IMG/VR virus record: IMGVR_UViG_3300045988_077461
DNA: 15,968 nt
Reading direction: 5' to 3' (one strand)
DNA from: a virus
This document shows, in pieces, positions 3,194-15,968 of the stretch; the stretch's first letter is position 1; each line of letters begins with the position of its first letter. The notes under the pieces were generated by a model. That model searched no databases and was not told where the DNA came from. It was given only the letters and a program-made list of their open reading frames with translations. A program made the position numbers and the translations under genes.

Positions 3194-3940
3194 TCACCAA
3201 ACTTTTAGAAACAAATCTCGACAAGCTTCTACAAGTTCTCGATTGATATTCTGTATTTGCTCGCGATATTCTTCAATTGCTTCACTTGTTGATTTTCCTC
3301 TTAATCCTATCTCTTTCGTGTCTCTGTCTCTTTTGCTGTCTTTGTTGTCGTTACCTGTATGGTTATTGTTTGCGGTTGTTGTAGTGTTATTGACAGTCTC
3401 GCCCCTATTCATAGAGCTTGCATAGTCTTGCGTGGCTACGGTAACTTGCGGGTTGTCGCTGTCAATATTTTGATAGTTTTGGTTGTTTTTTACCTCGCTG
3501 TTTCCTGTATCTGTTGCTTTAGTCGTTGTTTTTTCGTTTCCTTTTTCTGCTTCTGTGATTGTTATATTTACATTTGTAAAAGGGTTGTCATTTTGAATTG
3601 CGTTATACAATTTTGTATAATACGGTGTCAATTCATGCATTTTTGCCATGAATGCAGTTTTCCACATACCCAATGTTTCAAAACCTATATAATTATTCCA
3701 GTATCTAAGTAAAAAATATGTTTTAAAAGTATACATATCTTTTCTATATTCTGAGTAAAAAGGAAAATCAAAGTCAAAAAATTTATCCTGTGTTTTATCA
3801 ATAATTATTTGCACAGATAAGTCCATGCTCCATAGTTCTTGGGGTATAATAAAGCTTTCACAAATTTCTTTAACAGTTGTTGTATATTTACTCAATTTCG
3901 TCACCCTCTTTCCCTTTTTGCATGTACTTGTCAGGTACAT
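3194..3940 (-). CDS. Putative lower collar protein (phi29 gp11 position), 233-248 aa
   Basis: Immediately downstream of the portal gene, as gp11 is in phi29. The start is uncertain. The ATG at 3940 overlaps the portal gene by 53 nt and has a weak RBS. A TTG at 3895 follows GAGGGTG (3901-3907) and overlaps the portal stop codon (ATTGAGTAA), which suggests translational coupling. The protein contains an Asn/Thr-rich low-complexity segment (NNTTTTANNNHTGNDNKDSKRDRD). Confidence 0.5.
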   Translation of the reverse strand: MYLTSTCKKGKRVTKLSKYTTTVKEICESFIIPQELWSMDLSVQIIIDKTQDKFFDFDFPFYSEYRKDMYTFKTYFLLRYWNNYIGFETLGMWKTAFMAKMHELTPYYTKLYNAIQNDNPFTNVNITITEAEKGNEKTTTKATDTGNSEVKNNQNYQNIDSDNPQVTVATQDYASSMNRGETVNNTTTTANNNHTGNDNKDSKRDRDTKEIGLRGKSTSEAIEEYREQIQNINRELVEACRDLFLKVW

Positions 3941-4787
3941 ATCCGTTCATCATGGTAGGCAACTCACTGTTGAAGTCAACGGTTACATTGAGACCCCATA
4001 ATTCATTTATAGTATCCGCACATCTTCTACGTAATGTCAGTCCAACGTTTCTATTTGCTTCAATCTGACCATTGTTACCAGCTGTCTCGCCAGTAACAAG
4101 GCGCTCACTTTTCTCTACAGGGTTGCTTTCATAGCCTAAAGATGTTAATACCTGTGACCATAAATCTCTTAATTCCTGCTCACATTTATCCACGATATAA
4201 GGTGCTCCCATGTTCAGTGCTTTGATGTCTTTCAAGTTCAATGAATCGGAAAGTTTTATAATGGGTAAATAGTTGTCGTACTCTTCACCTACTATTTCAA
4301 AGCTTAATTTTTCATTGTCAGAGGAAGAAAGTACAACAGGTGTACGTTGTGCATACATATTAATACCTTTTGTTTTCCAAGTGTTCGCCATAGCATCTGC
4401 ATACATTAAAGCTTTATAGTAATACGGCATACTTGAGTAGTTATTCCATAAGATACAACTATTTTCTTTACCATATTCTTCAATATATCCGTTAGGCGTG
4501 TAAGCGATTCTATCTTTAGGAATATTATAAATATCGGGTAAGCCGGATAATGAAACTTTCATGAATGCATATCCTGCAATTTTATCCTTGATGAATACGC
4601 CCAAACCATTCCAAAAAAGAGTTTGCTCAATATACATAGGTAAAATTTCTTCCGGTAGATTATTCCATGTATATCTATTTACAAATATATCGAAAATATC
4701 ATAAAAGAATATAGATTTAATTGTTTCAAAATCACTACATTTATTTTTGTTGATATTTCTCTCAAAAACCCTTAACGGATTCCTCAT
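3888..4787 (-). CDS. Portal / upper collar connector protein, phi29 gp10-like (299 aa)
   Basis: Blocks match phi29 gp10 as I recall it. [30 protein letters not shown] aligns with [48 protein letters not shown] aligns with [26 protein letters not shown]...[10 protein letters not shown]...[13 protein letters not shown] aligns with DAPYVVDK...EKKERMVTDE...INELYGLNVKVKF. RBS GGGAGG. Confidence 0.88.
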   Translation of the reverse strand: [299 protein letters not shown]

Positions 4788-9086: not shown

Positions 9087-9124
9087 AAAATGTTTCACGT
9101 GAAACATTTTTGTTCCACGTGAAT
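9087..9124. promoter_or_regulatory. Palindromic box pair between the endolysin and tail-lysin genes
   Basis: A perfect 24-bp palindrome AAAATGTTTCACGTGAAACATTTT (9087-9110) is followed by a degenerate copy TGTTCCACGTGAAT (9111-9124). The CACGTG centres are 20 bp apart. On the minus strand the perfect box ends one nt before the AAGGAGG RBS of the 335-aa gene. Confidence 0.6.
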
Positions 9125-9129
9125 AAAAA

Positions 9130-10119
9130 CTAAATCATGTATAACATATCTTTCGCGTAAACGAATTCAGTCCCACAAGCGCGTGCCAATCCTCTTCCAA
9201 ATGTTCCAGGGCATTCGACACCGTTCGGGTCTTTTCCCTGTAACAGGCATAAGATTTCAAGAGCTGTAACAAGATACTGCGTTTCTCCACGCTTTACATA
9301 ATGCTTTCCTGCTTTTGCTAAAGTCTTTCTCCCTACAATACCATCCTCCACAAGTGTTTTACCGTAGTCTGCGTTCATGGCTCTTTGTACTACGCGAACT
9401 GCCATTCTTTTCGTATTTCTGCCTGCAATACCATCAACTGCAATTTTAACGCCTGTGAAATTGATAGCGTGCTGTTGTCCTAGAGCGATTAATTCATTTC
9501 TGAGTTTTTCATGTGTAGTGGCAGTCTGTGGTGTAGTAGGTGTAGAACTTGAAACTGCATAGTCTTTGTATACATGATTCACATCACATCTACCGTTAAT
9601 ACCATCAACAGACCCATTGCTGGAATACTGCCATATGTCCACATTATCTACGCCTAACACATTAGAGTAACGAGCAATCCATAAATCATAGCCCCATGTT
9701 TCACCAATGTAATTCTCGAACCATGATTTACTAGCATATATCCCAGCCTTATATCCATTCGTTAACATAGCGTCACAAAACCGCTTTGCGTTGTGCTTTG
9801 CGACTCCTTGCGTTCCTTTTTCTTCACTGTCGAAAAATACAGGTAGATTAGGCGTGTGACCTTGTAACAATCTAAGACAGTGTCTAATTTCACCCTCAAT
9901 TTTTGAAGTTGTTTTTGCGTAGGAATAGAAATATACACCGTATGGAATACCCAATCTTTCACATTCACTTACATTTCGATTCCATTGTTTATCGTCCTGT
10001 GATGTCATATCCTGCCCATAACCGCAACGAATGATAACATAGTCCACGGCATTTTTTAACCGTTCAAAATCAATAACCCCGTTGTGATAAGAAATGTCTA
10101 CTGCTTTTTTTACTGTCAT
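9130..10119 (-). CDS. Endolysin: GH25 muramidase plus C-terminal peptidoglycan-binding (PG_binding_1-like) repeats (329 aa)
   Basis: GH25 landmarks are VDISYHNGVIDF, YVIIRCGYG, GVYFYSY, FFDSEE, GIYASKSW, LWIARY and IWQYSSNGSVDGINGRCDVN. The C-terminus has two DGIxGRxT motifs (VDGIAGRNTKRMAVRVVQRAM and EDGIVGRKTLAKA). Confidence 0.9.
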   Translation of the reverse strand: MTVKKAVDISYHNGVIDFERLKNAVDYVIIRCGYGQDMTSQDDKQWNRNVSECERLGIPYGVYFYSYAKTTSKIEGEIRHCLRLLQGHTPNLPVFFDSEEKGTQGVAKHNAKRFCDAMLTNGYKAGIYASKSWFENYIGETWGYDLWIARYSNVLGVDNVDIWQYSSNGSVDGINGRCDVNHVYKDYAVSSSTPTTPQTATTHEKLRNELIALGQQHAINFTGVKIAVDGIAGRNTKRMAVRVVQRAMNADYGKTLVEDGIVGRKTLAKAGKHYVKRGETQYLVTALEILCLLQGKDPNGVECPGTFGRGLARACGTEFVYAKDMLYMI

Positions 10120-10121
10120 GT

Positions 10122-10346
10122 TTAACCCTCTCTTTTCTGTTCAAATGTATCGCATATTCTTTGAAGTGCAAGCGTGTTGTTGTTCAAAGCTTCTGTGATA
10201 TCTTCCATTTCTTTTTTGTGTGCTTCATTTAGATTGTCTACGCGTACGTCGTTTTTATCATCTCTGTATTTAACATACCACATTGACGCAACCGCAACAA
10301 CTGTAGGTAGACCCAATGTGTTAATGGCTGTCATTACTTCCTGCAT
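10122..10346 (-). CDS. Holin-like protein, BhlA/UviB-type architecture (74 aa)
   Basis: A single N-terminal TM helix (LGLPTVVAVASMWYV) is followed by a charged coiled-coil tail. The gene lies immediately upstream of the endolysin, with stop and start 2 nt apart. RBS AAGGAGGTG. Confidence 0.6.
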   Translation of the reverse strand: MQEVMTAINTLGLPTVVAVASMWYVKYRDDKNDVRVDNLNEAHKKEMEDITEALNNNTLALQRICDTFEQKREG

Positions 10347-10367
10347 ATTATCACCTCCTTTTTATAT

Positions 10368-10396
10368 ATCATAGCACAAATAAAACTGCTTGTAAA
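10368..10396 (-). promoter_or_regulatory. Candidate late (lysis and morphogenesis) promoter
   Basis: On the minus strand: TTTACA (10391-10396), 17 nt ending in TGc, then TATGAT (10368-10373), about 20 nt before the holin RBS. Two palindromic boxes lie just upstream, centred near -50 and -66. Confidence 0.55.
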
Positions 10397-10551
10397 TAAA
10401 AAATGTTTCACGTGAAACATTATCCACGTGAAACATATTGTACGTTACAAAATAATCGAATCAAAGGGAACGCAACGCCAAAAATTGATATCAGACTACT
10501 TGTCTATGTGCGCGTATATCAATTACAATGCTCGTATTATTTTGGGTACAT
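10397..10551 (-). ncRNA. Candidate non-coding RNA (~150 nt); possible packaging RNA (pRNA)
   Basis: This is the only long ORF-free gap in the unique region (10375-10600). A consensus promoter fires into it. Positions 10532-10550 can pair with 10439-10459: a 12-bp helix with one bulged A, plus a 5-bp extension. That helix encloses about 72 nt containing a 9-bp hairpin (10483-10491 with 10516-10524). The 3' end would be the palindrome at 10402-10421 followed by TTTTTATTT. It is adjacent to the packaging ATPase gene. Confidence 0.45.
10402..10436. promoter_or_regulatory. Palindromic box pair upstream of the late promoter; it may also act as the hairpin terminator of the candidate ncRNA
   Basis: A perfect 20-bp palindrome AATGTTTCACGTGAAACATT (10402-10421) plus a half-degenerate copy CCACGTGAAACAT (10424-10436). 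The CACGTG centres are 16 bp apart. Confidence 0.6.
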
Positions 10552-10555
10552 TGTA

Positions 10556-10584
10556 ATTATAGCATGCATAATTTAAAATGTCAA
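10556..10584 (-). promoter_or_regulatory. Consensus sigma-A promoter driving the ORF-free region
   Basis: On the minus strand: TTGACA (10579-10584), an exact 17-nt spacer ending in TGc, then TATAAT (10556-10561). The -35 overlaps the end of the palindromic box 10583-10602 by 2 nt. Confidence 0.7.
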
Positions 10585-10602
10585 TGTTTCACGTGAAACA
10601 TT
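10583..10602. promoter_or_regulatory. Palindromic box overlapping the ATPase stop codon and the -35 of the ncRNA promoter
   Basis: AATGTTTCACGTGAAACATT, a perfect 20-bp palindrome. Confidence 0.6.
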
Positions 10603-11647
10603 AAAAAGATATGACATCAAATATCATATTCTTACATTCTAAATTTTCAAATAAAAGTAAACCTCTATTAAAATATTCTCGTAGCATCGTTACAATATAA
10701 TGAGTTGAATTTACACGGATAGCTGTGTTATCGATAACGTCAGTTTTTGTAAAGCATATCCTTACTGGAAAACTGTCGTCAGCACCAGTTGATATATACA
10801 TATAAGTATCGTATCTTCTCACGTTATACATTTTTTCATTAAATCTAATTGTACAAATATATCGCGATTGGCCACTAGGTTTACCTATTAAGCAATCATT
10901 GTCATTCAAATATTTATTTTCACTAGCGTATTCATTATAACTTGCACCTTGAAATGCCCTAGCTATACCACTTTCTTTATATGCTGTTGAAGCATTTTCA
11001 TTATAAGTTCGTTCAAATACCCAACCGTCACCGCGTAAAAATTTAGTGTTATGTTTTAACATTTTATTTATACCAAAAACGTTATAATAAGGGTTCAATA
11101 ATGACACGGTATTAGAAGCCATATACAGCATAACTCTTCTATGCTGCTTCCCATGACCTGCGCTAATAGTTGTGAGCAATGATAAAAGCTTATTTACTTC
11201 GTTTGGCAAATATACGTTATCTTCGTCTTGATATTCGTCAAAAAATACAGAACGAATATTTACAAATAATCCACGCATTTTTTTATATTTTCTTGCGACA
11301 GATAAAGATAAACAATATCCGCATGGTTCTTCATTCAGATATAATTGTATCAATGACCCATTCATCAAACTCTTTTCAGTCATTACATAACCATCAAATT
11401 TTTCAGATATATCTCCAAAATACGTGTCAGCACAGTTTTTCATATCAATAACATTTCGATATAAATATATAAATTGATTTTCGGGTCTATATTTATCTTT
11501 TAAAAAATCAGAAACTTGTCTACACTTAATGGAATAGCTTTTGCCTGCCGTTCTATTACCATCTACAATATAAATATCCGGGATTTTGCCGTTTTTATCT
11601 TTCAATGTTAATAATCTATCGCAATGATAATAACCATCATTTTCCAT
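10601..11647 (-). CDS. DNA encapsidation (packaging) ATPase, phi29 gp16-like (348 aa)
   Basis: Walker A is IVDGNRTAGKSYSIK (phi29 FVIGARGIGKSYAMK), followed by NQFIYLYRN (EQFIYVRRY). Walker B and downstream read VFFDEYQDEDNVYLPNEVNKLLSLL...MASNTVSLLNPYY (phi29 IVFDEFIREKDNSNYIPNEVSALLNLM...LSNAVSVVNPYF). RBS AAGGAGG. Confidence 0.92.
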   Translation of the reverse strand: MENDGYYHCDRLLTLKDKNGKIPDIYIVDGNRTAGKSYSIKCRQVSDFLKDKYRPENQFIYLYRNVIDMKNCADTYFGDISEKFDGYVMTEKSLMNGSLIQLYLNEEPCGYCLSLSVARKYKKMRGLFVNIRSVFFDEYQDEDNVYLPNEVNKLLSLLTTISAGHGKQHRRVMLYMASNTVSLLNPYYNVFGINKMLKHNTKFLRGDGWVFERTYNENASTAYKESGIARAFQGASYNEYASENKYLNDNDCLIGKPSGQSRYICTIRFNEKMYNVRRYDTYMYISTGADDSFPVRICFTKTDVIDNTAIRVNSTHYIVTMLREYFNRGLLLFENLECKNMIFDVISF

Positions 11648-12550: not shown

Positions 12551-14431
12551 TTATAATTTTTTATCTTTTTGTTCGTGTATATTGAAGTCTTTATTTCTTA
12601 ATACAATACCGCCTTTTACTCGCTCTGCTTTTAAGTTACAAGTGTTCATACTAAGACCAGTGGATAACTCAGATATGTCTCGTCCATCTTCGATAAATTT
12701 TCTTTTAGCTTGACTACTCATTCCACAGGCTTTTATATCAAGATAAGGCTCGCATGGTATATGATTCTCTTCAATAATATGCTCTGCATAAGTTTTCTGT
12801 CTTTCATAATACGCAAAATCAAATGTACTTTCGCATTTCCAACAACAAAAATTAGTAGAATGCTCCACAACCTTTTCTGCTTTTTCTGTACCTATAATAT
12901 GTATCGAGTCCGTATCAGCGTAACAAAATCGGTCATAATTTGCCATAGCATGACGTATAGTAAAATTCATAGCATAAGAAGTAATAGCACTACCAATTGG
13001 AATATACCCGACTTTCTTTTCATGTTCCTCATGTAGTGTAAATCTTATAATACCATCATCATCAAGATAAGGCTCTTTGTAAGATGAGTTATCCGACATA
13101 GCAAATTTTCCATAGAGGTTATTTAAAAATAGTTTCGCTTTTTGTCTTTTAAAACCTTTTGATGTTCTTTTTTCTTCTCCGTATTTGTCTATATATTCAT
13201 CAAAAAATCCTTGTCTAGCATAGAACCATATGTAATCATAAATTACCAAATCATAAATATCATAAGTTTCTTGGAACAACGCCCAGTCAGTGCAAGTCAT
13301 AGTTAGAGTGACATTAGTATCATGCATTTGTCCGTCAATATCACGGTAATATCGATAATATTCGCCTTTATACCGTACATTAGAAGTATATAAATTTTCA
13401 TTTGATTTGTATAAAGCACTATTCCTAATATGTAACCATGGAAATGCCCCTGCTTTTAACTGAAATCTACAATTGAAACGAATAAAAAAATATTTATTAG
13501 TAGACCTTATCAATTCATCGGGTGGAGACCCTCTGTGATATTCTCCATGACCGAACGGGTATTTATTCCCACTAATGCTATGCATCATAGACGGGTACAA
13601 AGAGTTTACATCATATACTAATCCCTCCCCCACTACCATATGCGCGTAACGTGGATTGACGTAGCACCAGCCTCCGTGATATGATTTGTGAATATAGTCC
13701 CACTGATTCCATACACCTGTGATAGATTCGTCTATATAATCTTCTCTAATATCGGGAAATAACTTATCATATTGTTTAGCATCATAAAAACCTTTAAATT
13801 CTGATAGACAGCATGAACCTATTGTTAGTTTATCATGATTTTCATTGAACATCATTTCAAGTGCTTCTTTTAATACTAATACATCATTTTCAATATACTT
13901 TTTCTCATTTTCAGATATATCACAATAAGCGTATCTCTCGCCCTCATATTCCATGTCTAGCTTTTGGTGCTTTGTGCCAAATGATTTTCCGATATTTTTT
14001 AATGAAGAGGGCATAAGCTTTAAAGAGTTTCGGATTTCTAAAAAAGTCTTGTTCCATTTTAATTTAATCCAATACCAGGAACCCATATCAGATATACAAG
14101 TTTGAAATTCTTTTGATTTCATTTCTTTATCTTTACAATGTACCCATTCCCAACCCTCTTTTAATAGAAAATCTACTATAAAAGAACCGTCAAATGCAAG
14201 ATTATGAAAGTATAATATATTGTTACCTCTCATTGTCAAAAATCTATTTAAAAAATCTCTTATCGAATGAGTTATTGTTACTGTTTCGGTTTCGTCATAT
14301 AAGGCCACGTAAGCTCCACTCCACACTTCTGTACTATCTTGCTTTTTACCTTTTTCTTGCTCCACCTTTTCACCCCATACGGTAGTCTCAAAATCGCACG
14401 CCCAAAAAGTAATACTCTTTTTACGTGGCAT
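12551..14431 (-). CDS. Protein-primed family-B DNA polymerase, phi29 gp2-like (626 aa)
   Basis: All hallmark motifs can be read. ExoI is FWACDFETT. ExoII is YFHNLAFDGSFIV. ExoIII is YIENDVLVLKEAL. Motif A is VYDVNSLYPSMM. Motif B is KAKLFLNNLYGKFA. Motif C is CYADTDSIHI. The KxY motif is ERQKTYAEH. The RBS and start codon lie inside ITR-R. Confidence 0.96.
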   Translation of the reverse strand: MPRKKSITFWACDFETTVWGEKVEQEKGKKQDSTEVWSGAYVALYDETETVTITHSIRDFLNRFLTMRGNNILYFHNLAFDGSFIVDFLLKEGWEWVHCKDKEMKSKEFQTCISDMGSWYWIKLKWNKTFLEIRNSLKLMPSSLKNIGKSFGTKHQKLDMEYEGERYAYCDISENEKKYIENDVLVLKEALEMMFNENHDKLTIGSCCLSEFKGFYDAKQYDKLFPDIREDYIDESITGVWNQWDYIHKSYHGGWCYVNPRYAHMVVGEGLVYDVNSLYPSMMHSISGNKYPFGHGEYHRGSPPDELIRSTNKYFFIRFNCRFQLKAGAFPWLHIRNSALYKSNENLYTSNVRYKGEYYRYYRDIDGQMHDTNVTLTMTCTDWALFQETYDIYDLVIYDYIWFYARQGFFDEYIDKYGEEKRTSKGFKRQKAKLFLNNLYGKFAMSDNSSYKEPYLDDDGIIRFTLHEEHEKKVGYIPIGSAITSYAMNFTIRHAMANYDRFCYADTDSIHIIGTEKAEKVVEHSTNFCCWKCESTFDFAYYERQKTYAEHIIEENHIPCEPYLDIKACGMSSQAKRKFIEDGRDISELSTGLSMNTCNLKAERVKGGIVLRNKDFNIHEQKDKKL

Positions 14432-14447
14432 TTATTCTCACCTCTTT

Positions 14448-15158
14448 TTATTCGTTCTCAATAACAATATCTTGCTCTTGCAAAAATTCTTGAAAATCTT
14501 CTGTTGTGCTAATAACGCCCATTCTATGCAAAATGTTCCAAAATACAGCGTCAACCGTAGCTTTGTCCATGTATGGCTCTGTTGGAAATGCTTCGCTTTC
14601 TTTTGTGTATGTGTAAGCAAATAACGCCCTTTCTTTCTCCGACGCATTAGATAATATAGCGTCTGTTTTTTGCCTTAAATAATCAGTTGTTTTTGGCACA
14701 AAACTCTCTAAAGAATCATACCACGAATCAATAATTGCTTCGTAATCTAATACAGGTATTGCTATATTGACTTTAATACCGTTCTTTTGTAGTGCTTTTA
14801 ATTCCTTAATATCAGTATAACCTTGCATTCTAGCATATTCTTGTTCCTGTGGTGTCAGTTTTATAAAAACTCTGTTTCTTTCAAGTGTATGTTTACGTCC
14901 ATACTCTTTAGAGCTTATAACCTCACCTGTAAGCATATCAACAACCGACGCATTTTTTCGTATTTCTTTTGCATTCTGTTTTTTAATTCTATTAATAGAA
15001 GATTGCGTAGGGTTTTTTACTCGCTTGATTGCCTTTACCTGTACCCCTTGTTTTTGTTGATTTCTGACACGAGATAAATATTTATTATATTCTTTAGAAT
15101 ATTCTTTCTGTATAAGAAAAGCTTTTGTTTTTTTCTTTTTTATACGTTTATTAGCCAT
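14448..15158 (-). CDS. Putative terminal (DNA-priming) protein (236 aa), ITR-R copy, directly upstream of the polymerase
   Basis: Identical to 811..1521. Its stop codon lies 16 nt before the polymerase ATG, in the same operon. Confidence 0.45.
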   Translation of the reverse strand: MANKRIKKKKTKAFLIQKEYSKEYNKYLSRVRNQQKQGVQVKAIKRVKNPTQSSINRIKKQNAKEIRKNASVVDMLTGEVISSKEYGRKHTLERNRVFIKLTPQEQEYARMQGYTDIKELKALQKNGIKVNIAIPVLDYEAIIDSWYDSLESFVPKTTDYLRQKTDAILSNASEKERALFAYTYTKESEAFPTEPYMDKATVDAVFWNILHRMGVISTTEDFQEFLQEQDIVIENE

Positions 15159-15161
15159 CTT

Positions 15162-15356
15162 TTAATCCACATCCTTTTCCACTTTTCTTAATAGCAAGCC
15201 ATGTGGTACGCGCGTGTATTCGATACTATCACCCGGATGAATGTCTAAATCTCGAATTGCTTCTTTTGGTATCATGACGCGGGCGGTGTAGCCGCCTGTG
15301 CCACCTTTCGTAAACATTACTTTATAGCGCAATAATTTATTTGTTAATTTTGCCAT
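15162..15356 (-). CDS. AbrB/SpoVT-like small DNA-binding protein (64 aa), ITR-R copy
   Basis: Identical to 613..807. Confidence 0.55.
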   Translation of the reverse strand: MAKLTNKLLRYKVMFTKGGTGGYTARVMIPKEAIRDLDIHPGDSIEYTRVPHGLLLRKVEKDVD

Positions 15357-15369
15357 GTTTTTTTCCTCC

Positions 15370-15825
15370 TTATAAAATATTAAATACTTTCCATGTGAAC
15401 TCTGAAAAATGTTCTGCTATAAATGATACAGAAGATAAGAAAAGATATAGCAAAAAGGTTGCCATTATTATGACTGATAAGATTGCTAAGAAAGAGGATA
15501 TTTTTTCTAATTTGGTGTATGGTTCTTTTTCTTCTGCTTGTATATGCCTTTTTATCCAGTCTATTTCAGATTCGTGTACTGTTTCACGTGAAACATTTAA
15601 ATCGTCTAGTTTATTTAATGTAACTACTACCATATTTTCGTTACATAAATGAGTTTCTGTATGACCGTCAAAGTCTGTATACACATTTTCATGTGTTTCT
15701 AAATTTTCAACCCAATATGGCGGGTCTACAAATAAGGCTATGTAATTGTTTAGTGAATTTTCAGTATAGAAGTCATGGAGTTGTATTCCAAAATCTGTGA
15801 TGTTATGTAGTCTGTATTTAATCAT
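15370..15825 (-). CDS. Hypothetical tail-anchored membrane early protein (151 aa), ITR-R copy
   Basis: Identical to 144..599. Confidence 0.6.
   Translation of the reverse strand: MIKYRLHNITDFGIQLHDFYTENSLNNYIALFVDPPYWVENLETHENVYTDFDGHTETHLCNENMVVVTLNKLDDLNVSRETVHESEIDWIKRHIQAEEKEPYTKLEKISSFLAILSVIIMATFLLYLFLSSVSFIAEHFSEFTWKVFNIL
15580..15595. promoter_or_regulatory. 16-bp palindromic box inside the first ITR gene (right copy)
   Basis: Mirror of 374..389: TGTTTCACGTGAAACA. Confidence 0.6.
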
Positions 15826-15873
15826 TTATTTTCTTCCTCCTTATTTTTACTAGGTTTCCTTGTTTCTATAATT

Positions 15874-15902
15874 ATAATACCACGAGCCGTATTATTTGTC
15901 AA
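15874..15902 (-). promoter_or_regulatory. Terminal early promoter, sigma-A type (right copy), heading the operon that runs into the DNA polymerase gene
   Basis: Mirror image of 67..95: -35 at 15897-15902 and -10 at 15874-15879 on the minus strand. Confidence 0.7.
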
Positions 15903-15968
15903 GTATTTTTTTCGTGCTTTTTAACCAAATGGGGGACGTGGTCTCATCGGGAATAACGTAAGCCCTCT

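Follow-up and report, generated by a model that had tools for sequence, protein, structure and literature searches.

The packaging RNA (pRNA) is, to our knowledge, the only RNA known within a viral DNA-packaging motor. In phage phi29, adjacent pRNA molecules are joined by pairing between the CE bulge of one and the D loop of the next (AACC/GGUU). The consensus of the Rfam model RF00044, which phi29 matches with 145 bits, begins with an A helix with bulges, a single nucleotide (nt), and a C helix. The 5' strand then has a bulge of 9 nt, followed by a 4-base-pair (bp) E hairpin and the C return strand; UUU, a D hairpin of 6 bp with a loop of 5 nt, and the A return strand complete the consensus. 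Two reviews, from 2016 (PMC5066667) and 2024 (PMC11476376), describe pRNA as peculiar to phi29 and its relatives among the Bacillus phages. The only earlier proposal outside the Bacillus phages is the putative pRNA of the Streptococcus phage Cp-1, which was not reliably recovered by a covariance model built from Bacillus pRNAs (PMC6266182). A paper on a Clostridium perfringens podophage names pRNA merely as the partner of the ATPase (PMC3362512), and in the literature on pRNA in gut or metagenomic phi29-like phages, we found nothing further. Here, we present an analysis of the IMG/VR virus record IMGVR_UViG_3300045988_077461 (15,968 bp; "the window" refers to this whole stretch of DNA), focusing on the gap between its genes for a gp16-type packaging ATPase and a holin-like protein. 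Based on genome comparisons, we consider it likely that this gap encodes a small non-coding RNA with the role of the phi29 pRNA, i.e., a packaging RNA of a new sequence family.

The window is a complete phi29-like podophage genome and encodes phi29-type motor components, the gp16 ATPase and the gp10 connector, as identified using Pfam. The non-coding gap following the ATPase gene spans 254 bp (10347-10600). It is the largest gap in the genome. The size given in an initial reading of this DNA (here, the original prediction), 226 bp, was too small, and the gap is not strictly free of open reading frames (ORFs), as had been claimed, but contains ORFs of 22-57 amino acids (aa). The length of the longest of these, which is antisense, varies from 22 to 58 aa across close relatives, arguing that it is not conserved. 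Only 16 nt separate the end of the ATPase gene from the −35 hexamer of the promoter of the RNA gene. This promoter, TTGACA-17 nt (TGC)-TATAAT, is the sole 12/12 match to the sigma-70 consensus in the window, in agreement with the earlier claim that it is the best in the genome. We placed the start of the transcript 7 nt past the −10 hexamer, which is the first base of the closing helix, and its end at a T-run, giving a predicted primary transcript of approximately 150 nt. The palindrome and T-run that had been proposed as terminator correspond to the best terminator-like site, with a stem of 14 pairs and a loop of 6 (10436-10403) ahead of the T-run. A second promoter precedes the holin-like gene, arguing that the RNA is its own transcription unit. 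Altogether, and as far as can be judged from the DNA, a consensus promoter, a helix beginning at the predicted +1, and a terminator approximately 150 nt downstream are all present and conserved.

Within this unit, the 110-nt core is predicted to fold into a three-way junction (Table 1). A 5-nt junction separates the A-type closing helix from the C-type helix, and the D-type hairpin is followed by a short junction and the A helix return strand. Folding of 10549-10395 to the minimum free energy (MFE) yields the closing helix and the inner helix. Accordingly, the closing helix of the original prediction (10532-10550/10439-10459) was recovered by MFE folding, and it has support from covariation; the 9-bp hairpin (10516-10524/10483-10491) is a real helix, but rather than forming a simple hairpin, it encloses a 9-nt bulge and a smaller hairpin. 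The folding energy of the 155-nt unit is low (z = −4.45) because of the palindromic terminator, while that of the 110-nt core alone is not (z = −1.1), and we therefore rejected folding energy as evidence. The caveat originally attached to the AT-rich pairings, that they could be fortuitous, was fair, but the comparative evidence argues that they are not.

To obtain this evidence, we scanned IMG/VR with the window ATPase and found 122 stretches encoding a relative, of which the best 80 were retained as loci. In 79 of the 80, ATPase protein identity is 86-99% (group A), and the gap sequence is present in every group A locus with enough flank. Overall, approximately 100 metagenomic relatives carry the RNA. 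In an alignment of 78 sequences, the core is conserved at 95% per column, exceeding the promoter spacer; this spacer (83%) and the bases between the −10 hexamer and +1 (78%) drift. No change is seen in the −35 hexamer, and the −10 hexamer is always TATAAT, TATTAT, or TATCAT. Among close relatives, identity to the window is 94.7% for the core versus 83.6% for the ATPase gene, 83.2% for the GH25 lysin gene, and 76.7% for the holin-like gene. Thus, the core is the most constrained DNA in the neighbourhood, and the pattern of conservation indicates that purifying selection acts on the RNA itself.

For 75 distinct group A sequences, RNAalifold predicted the closing helix, a helix of 8 bp that does not vary, and a hairpin of 5 bp. 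Compensatory changes were found in the closing helix (UA65/CG9; GC49/AU19/GU7; AU73/GC1/UG1), together with an additional one (CG73/UA1/UG1), and in the hairpin (AU71/GC3, GC72/AU3, AU69/GU5/GC1); in this E hairpin, AGAC/GUCU is replaced by GAAC/GUUC and A-U by G-C. A second scan, for which the query was the ATPase of L080 (59% identical to the window ATPase), added group B (approximately 25 contigs), L105, and group C (L107, L108, L110, and L111). In all of these, a promoter and a 110-114-nt RNA come right after the ATPase stop codon, followed by the RNA's own terminator and then by another promoter; the distance between the promoter of the RNA and the start of the helix is the same as in the window. 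The terminator-like domain is kept in group A; the other lineages close the RNA with unrelated hairpins and U-runs. The diverged RNAs are greatly different in sequence, with a GC fraction of 0.45-0.57 versus 0.35, and have the motifs CAAGUAGUC, CCCUU, and, near the 3' end, GGU-N-AC-G in common. A tight sequence-pattern search of viral contigs gave mostly chance matches on large contigs and one new homologue, L204.

We aligned 94 distinct cores using MAFFT, with no fitting to structure, and scored this alignment (A3) against the proposed structure. In A3, 91.4% of cells are paired versus 35-44% with slid partners, the covariation score is 0.397 versus at most 0.098 in the slid controls, and 25 pairs are changed on both sides. 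A covariance model built from A3 (R1) has a single match in the window (10439-10551, 124.5 bits). In the R1 alignment of 95 sequences, 89.7% of cells are paired versus 38-45% when slid, and 27 pairs are changed on both sides; the covariation that the original prediction had suggested looking for is, therefore, present among the 95 homologues. The C helix is invariant in close relatives, but across lineages six of its eight pairs change on both sides, with 93% of cells paired. Covariation across lineages also supports the A helix (helices 1-3 of the R1 alignment) and the E hairpin (helix 6), while the D stem is without such evidence because it never varies. The frequent G-U pairs argue that the transcribed strand is the strand of the ATPase gene. 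In L107 and L110, the MFE fold is a three-way junction in which a closing helix and a second hairpin accompany an arm that has a 5' bulge of 8 nt and is capped by a hairpin; in the MFE folds of L107, L110, and the Clostridium phage HM2 (see below), the D hairpin has 3-5 bp. The MFE structures of the group B RNAs differ from the proposed fold. Altogether, the predicted three-way junction is supported by covariation, and it is this comparative evidence, rather than folding energy, that argues that the RNA is real and beyond chance.

Applied to A3, RNAalifold returned, unprompted, a helix that joins the bulge to the second hairpin's loop; in this helix, 98.7% of cells are paired and all five pairs are changed on both sides. 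These columns are modelled as unpaired in R1, and yet the covariance-model alignment has them in register in every lineage. The diverged lineages have at least seven sequence versions of the complementarity (Table 1), which is the kind of match between CE- and D-type loops that had been proposed as a test. In composition-preserving shuffles, the complementarity had p values of 0.001-0.4 from lineage to lineage, which are individually weak; therefore, the argument rests on the in-register replacement across lineages. Comparison of the diverged relatives thereby demonstrates co-ordinated changes that maintain the putative bulge/loop pairing.

These features allow a comparison with phi29 pRNA element by element. 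Both RNAs are encoded by phi29-like phages that have the gp16 ATPase and the gp10 connector, have a strong promoter of their own, and consist of a core of approximately 110-120 nt and a 3' extension. In phi29 pRNA and in the predicted fold of the window RNA, the 5' and 3' ends form a long helix interrupted by an asymmetric internal loop or bulge, and a three-way junction has one arm with a 9-nt bulge on the 5' strand and a small capping hairpin; a U-run and a second hairpin follow, and the loop of this hairpin complements the bulge. The order of elements is that of the RF00044 phi29 consensus, and this order, the covariation, and the complementary loops all support the idea in the original prediction of a pRNA-type RNA beside the ATPase gene. 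However, there are differences. The window RNA has no detectable sequence or covariance-model similarity to phi29 pRNA, its junction strands are longer, and the loop pairing comprises 5 bp as opposed to 4 bp (AACC/GGUU). The phi29 pRNA gene lies at the left genome end, while the window RNA gene lies beside the ATPase gene; moreover, the phage of the window probably infects gut Clostridia, while phi29 infects Bacillus. The resemblance between the window RNA and pRNA is, thus, one of architecture only. Near the end of the closing helix, the U and A of the UAAC internal loop are at least 90% conserved across all lineages; at this site, which lies opposite C at 10545, other lineages have UCAC or UUAC, and distant relatives have UAA, UCA, or UUA. 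By analogy to the CCA bulge of phi29 pRNA, the UNAC internal loop may be a contact for a protein, i.e., the ATPase.

The pRNA of phage GA-1 and the Cp-1 proposal can also be compared with the window RNA. Like the window RNA, GA-1 pRNA has its own promoter and terminator, and it shows that structure can be kept while sequence drifts; it differs in its location (the left early region, which is distant from gene 16), in its Bacillus host, and in giving no match with R1. The Cp-1 proposal, as far as we found, concerns a single sequence without covariation support, while the window RNA has approximately 100 homologues.

Table 1. Features of the RNA locus and of the window, and versions of the bulge/loop complementarity
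Feature	Coordinates	Strand	Sequence or remark
Conserved core RNA	10440-10549	minus	110 nt; predicted three-way junction
A-type closing helix, 5' strand	10529-10549	minus	GUAC-C-CAAAAUAAU-A-CGAG-CA; pairs with 10440-10463
C-type helix, 5' strand	10516-10523	minus	AUUGAUAU; pairs with 10484-10491
One-sided bulge, 9 nt	10507-10515	minus	ACGCGCACA; GCGCA (10509-10513) complementary to D loop
E-type hairpin, 5 bp	10492-10506	minus	UAGAC-AAGUA-GUCUG
C-type helix, 3' strand	10484-10491	minus	AUAUCAAU
U-rich junction strand between C helix and D hairpin	10480-10483	minus	UUUU; 4-6 U in relatives
D-type hairpin	10466-10479	minus	GG/CC stem, loop of ~9 nt CGUUGCGUU; UGCGU (10470-10474) complementary to bulge
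A-type closing helix, 3' strand	10440-10463	minus	Includes asymmetric internal loop UAAC (10444-10447)
RNA-gene promoter	10556-10584	minus	−35 TTGACA 10584-10579; 17-nt spacer ending TGC (extended TG); −10 TATAAT 10561-10556
Predicted primary transcript, ~150 nt	10398-10549	minus	110-nt core and 3' terminator-hairpin domain
Terminator-like 3' domain	10398-10436	minus	Two CACGTG palindrome copies forming a 14-bp stem, then T-run
Second promoter, for holin-like gene	10368-10396	minus	TTTACA, 17 nt with TG, TATGAT; conserved in relatives
Perfect palindrome, 18 bp	10584-10601		ATGTTTCACGTGAAACAT; overlaps final base of ATPase stop codon and first base of −35
Protein-primed PolB	12551-14431	minus
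gp16-type packaging ATPase gene	10601-11647	minus	Pfam PF05894 Podovirus_Gp16, E 1e-32, profile positions 19-325/331
Holin-like gene	10122-10346	minus
gp10 connector	3888-4787	minus	Pfam Phage_connector, E 1.9e-49
Bulge/loop, most of group A			ACGCA / UGCGU
Bulge/loop, window			GCGCA / UGCGU; one G-U
Bulge/loop, group B			GCGUUA / UAACGC
Bulge/loop, L105			GAAUCAA / UUGAUUC
Bulge/loop, L107			CCCA / UGGG
Bulge/loop, L110			UCCA / UGGA
Bulge/loop, L111			GGAUA / UAUCC
Bulge/loop, L109			GUACA / UGUAC

In groups A, B, and C, the RNA comes directly after the ATPase gene. In L109 (region L109:2527-3184), R1 detects it approximately 650 nt downstream of this gene, with one extra gene in between. 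The product of the intervening gene begins with MLKKEIATQLFEHLCTHDWHGY, and a homologue follows the RNA in L107, L108, and L110; this gene order argues for a local rearrangement around the RNA gene. The closest ATPases outside the families described above are 36-39% identical to that of the window and come from human-faecal contigs and from the Clostridium phages CS229P1-3 and HM2. In HM2 (37% ATPase identity), a promoter and an RNA of approximately 100 nt follow the ATPase gene (L236:6095-6200). The MFE fold of this RNA is a three-way junction, in which the 5' bulge, (G)GUAGUCU, complements the loop of the second hairpin, AAGACUACA, over 7 nt (GUAGUCU/AGACUAC). MT835904 (L239) has an RNA after the ATPase gene that resembles the HM2 case, with GGGA/UCCC. 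The HM2 and MT835904 RNAs are unannotated in their GenBank records.

In CS229P1 (L235), the ATPase gene (9493-10527) is the only gene on the plus strand and is inverted compared with all of its neighbours; it is followed by a 180-nt gap, a bidirectional terminator, and a convergent gene. The gap has end sequences in common with the RNA of MT835814, which itself is a weak full-length match to R1 (E 1.4e-3). The CS229P1 ATPase gene and the non-coding gap after it look like a two-part module in inverted orientation. Folding of the "GGUAUC..." RNAs of CS229P1, MT835854, and MT835814 gave no confident pRNA-like fold, and the RNA of MT836152 looks different and is shorter.

The Hungatella phage CH17P1 (L244:500-734) and more than 30 IMG/VR relatives have a promoter and an RNA of approximately 104 nt immediately upstream of the ATPase gene (L248-L285, e.g., L248:477-580). 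For 10 RNAs of this family, RNAalifold predicts a closing helix, a second hairpin, and an arm that has a 5' bulge of 6 nt and ends in a hairpin. Compensatory changes affect 20 of the 36 pairs, and the proportion of paired cells is 93.9% versus 30-47% when slid. Support for the bulge/loop pairing is weaker in this family (80% of cells paired, two pairs changed on both sides). The CH17P1-type RNA is like the window RNA in having its own promoter, in its pRNA-like three-way junction, and in adjoining the ATPase gene, but it lies upstream of this gene rather than downstream and is unrelated in sequence; it gave no match with R1 or in Rfam. Further diverged lineages (L266, L267-L273, L276, and L280-L285) have a promoter and a structured-looking gap upstream of the ATPase gene, and L283 has an E-type loop, UUGAGU, together with an ACCA/UGGU bulge/loop match that is reminiscent of phi29. 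Even without filters, R1 gave no match to HM2, CS229P1, MT835854, MT835904, or MT836152. The links to HM2, MT835904, CH17P1, and CI461P1 therefore rest on fold and position, not on detectable homology. Taken together, a broader reading is that packaging RNAs are general and probably ancestral in phi29-type motors rather than specific to Bacillus, and that the phages of gut Clostridia have several sequence-unlike families (the window, HM2, and CH17P1 types), all with a three-way junction and a complementary bulge and loop, and all encoded in one module with the ATPase gene, which the RNA gene directly follows or directly precedes. On this broader reading, we are evenly divided.

How might such an RNA work? 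By analogy to phi29, the bulge of one RNA would pair with the loop of the next, so that five or six copies would form a ring on the empty head at its portal vertex. Head and connector would be held by the junction arms, the closing helices would point outward and dock the gp16-type ATPase, and the RNA would depart once the DNA is packaged.

Several observations weigh against assigning this role to the window RNA. First, RF00044 gave no match, neither in the whole window at the gathering score (100 bits) nor in the 800 nt around the gap at E <= 10; these Rfam searches returned chance microRNA-type matches only, and Rfam searches with the RNAs of the relatives gave no match. The RF00044 search that the original prediction had suggested is, thus, negative; however, this result says little, because the same model at its gathering score also misses the bona fide, annotated GA-1 pRNA (misc_RNA, NC_002649 1719-1879; L242). 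RF00044 defines the phi29 subgroup and not pRNAs generally. Second, R1 finds neither the phi29 nor the GA-1 pRNA, even without filters, leaving common descent with the Bacillus pRNAs unproven. Third, the folding energy of the core is, as described, unremarkable, and the D stem of the window lineage consists of just two invariant G-C pairs beneath a 9-nt loop compared with 6 bp and a 5-nt loop in phi29. Fourth, the bulge/loop match in the window comprises four Watson-Crick pairs and one G-U and is on its own not significant (shuffle p ~0.4). Finally, in the C. perfringens phage CPS2 and the Clostridium innocuum phage CI644P1, the ATPase gene has no gap beside it that could accommodate an RNA of this kind.

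The bulge/loop complementarity would also fit an intramolecular pseudoknot, since sequence cannot separate pairing in cis from pairing in trans. The main rival explanation builds on this point and states that the gap encodes a conserved structured RNA in which bulge and loop form a pseudoknot in cis and which has a non-packaging job, e.g., in anti-defence, or in regulation or as a decoy through binding to the ATPase or to some other protein of phage or host. The short D stem with its large loop would permit such a pseudoknot, and the RNA has no sequence similarity to known pRNAs. Nevertheless, we regard this explanation as unlikely. The RNA agrees with pRNA topology element by element, it occurs only in phi29-like genomes with gp16 and gp10, its adjacency to the ATPase gene persists in rearranged genomes, and a second, unrelated sequence family with the same fold is present at the ATPase gene. 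All four observations are expected of a motor component; a generic regulatory RNA would predict none of them.

The RNA lies upstream of, and on the same strand as, the block of holin, lysin, and structural genes, with a terminator in between, and it could, therefore, be a cis-acting leader or attenuator in which the promoter drives these downstream lysis and structural genes and the RNA and its terminator control read-through; the CH17P1-family RNA, which sits between a promoter and the ribosome-binding site of the ATPase gene, has a position compatible with such a function. We consider this very improbable. A separate conserved promoter lies between the terminator and the holin-like gene, the downstream gene varies by lineage while the RNA fold is kept, and there is no covarying alternative terminator/antiterminator pairing; moreover, in CS229P1 and MT835854, the bidirectional terminator and the convergent gene after the RNA mean that there is nothing to lead into. 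Least credible of all, to the point that we give it next to no weight, is a small protein-coding gene or a DNA-level element (a protein-binding array or a replication or packaging signal), as suggested by the gap ORFs and by the flanking CACGTG palindromes, which resemble protein-binding sites: ORF length and frame are unconserved, for which reason we rejected a coding role, the base-pair-compensatory substitutions with their many G-U pairs work on one RNA strand only, and group B has retained the RNA although its palindromes are found at another site, between the second promoter and the holin-like gene. Thus, the leader/attenuator, coding, and DNA-level explanations are all contradicted by the data. 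By comparison across genomes, the locus is demonstrated to be a separately promoted and strongly conserved gene for a predicted structured RNA with pRNA topology and linkage to the ATPase gene; its product is likely a packaging RNA that belongs to a new sequence family.

The perfect palindrome at the beginning of the RNA-gene promoter is part of a recurrent element. Its core, TTTCACGTGAAA, has six exact copies in the window (at 376, 9093, 10406, 10587, 11667, and 15582) and degenerate copies at 9113 and 10422; nine matches with at most two mismatches were found, a number reached by none of 200 shuffles. The copy at 10584-10601 is 99.4% conserved among relatives and is probably a regulator-binding site rather than part of the RNA. 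We considered and rejected the palindrome as an intrinsic part of the RNA, because the group B RNAs have another hairpin at their end and the group B palindromes lie beyond the next promoter. Perfect palindromes of 16-18 bp, (A)TGTTTCACGTGAAACA(T), are present at intergenic and promoter-proximal sites, and their positions are conserved in relatives. The palindrome is also found after the ATPase stop codon in CS229P1, within a terminator in MT835854, in two to three copies ahead of the group B holin-like gene, and twice between the polymerase and ATPase genes of CPS2 (L243:690-770). This distribution makes it look like an operator, either for a regulator common to very different Clostridial phi29-like phages or for a host factor. 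A 64-aa AbrB/MazE-like protein encoded at 15162-15356 and 613-807 is a candidate for binding it.

Apart from the genes listed in Table 1, the minus strand encodes a phi29-type capsid protein (Phi29_MCP in Pfam, E 2.6e-78), two lysins (one GH25), a scaffold-like protein, a gp9 tail knob, and a lower collar protein. The window has a perfect inverted terminal repeat of 1545 bp (1-1545 and 14424-15968), which doubles three genes, encoding a 151-aa membrane-like protein, the 64-aa protein of the AbrB/MazE fold, and a 236-aa basic protein beside the polymerase gene. The terminal repeat of phi29 is 6 bp; a repeat of 1545 bp is very long for this group and could be real or an assembly artefact. Comparison at the DNA level with phage records gave no similar record for the window. 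The exact RNA core is present in L247 (CAKSDT010000047.1, 13.2 kb), which belongs to a metagenome-assembled genome named "uncultured Clostridia bacterium"; this is probably a phage contig that was mis-binned or that co-occurs with its host. The host of the window phage is probably found among the gut Clostridia.

If the window RNA is a packaging RNA, it would become possible to annotate an essential gene that escapes both Rfam and the pipelines now in use, and its relatives would offer many natural and mutually orthogonal bulge/loop pairs and junction variants for nanotechnology based on the pRNA three-way junction. The cultured systems CS229P1, HM2, and CH17P1 would allow the prediction to be tested directly. 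That the RNA and ATPase genes travel together makes an RNA-ATPase module a hypothesis open to testing. RNA-dependent packaging motors would then not be limited to Bacillus phages but would be widespread, which would bear on the origin of pRNA.

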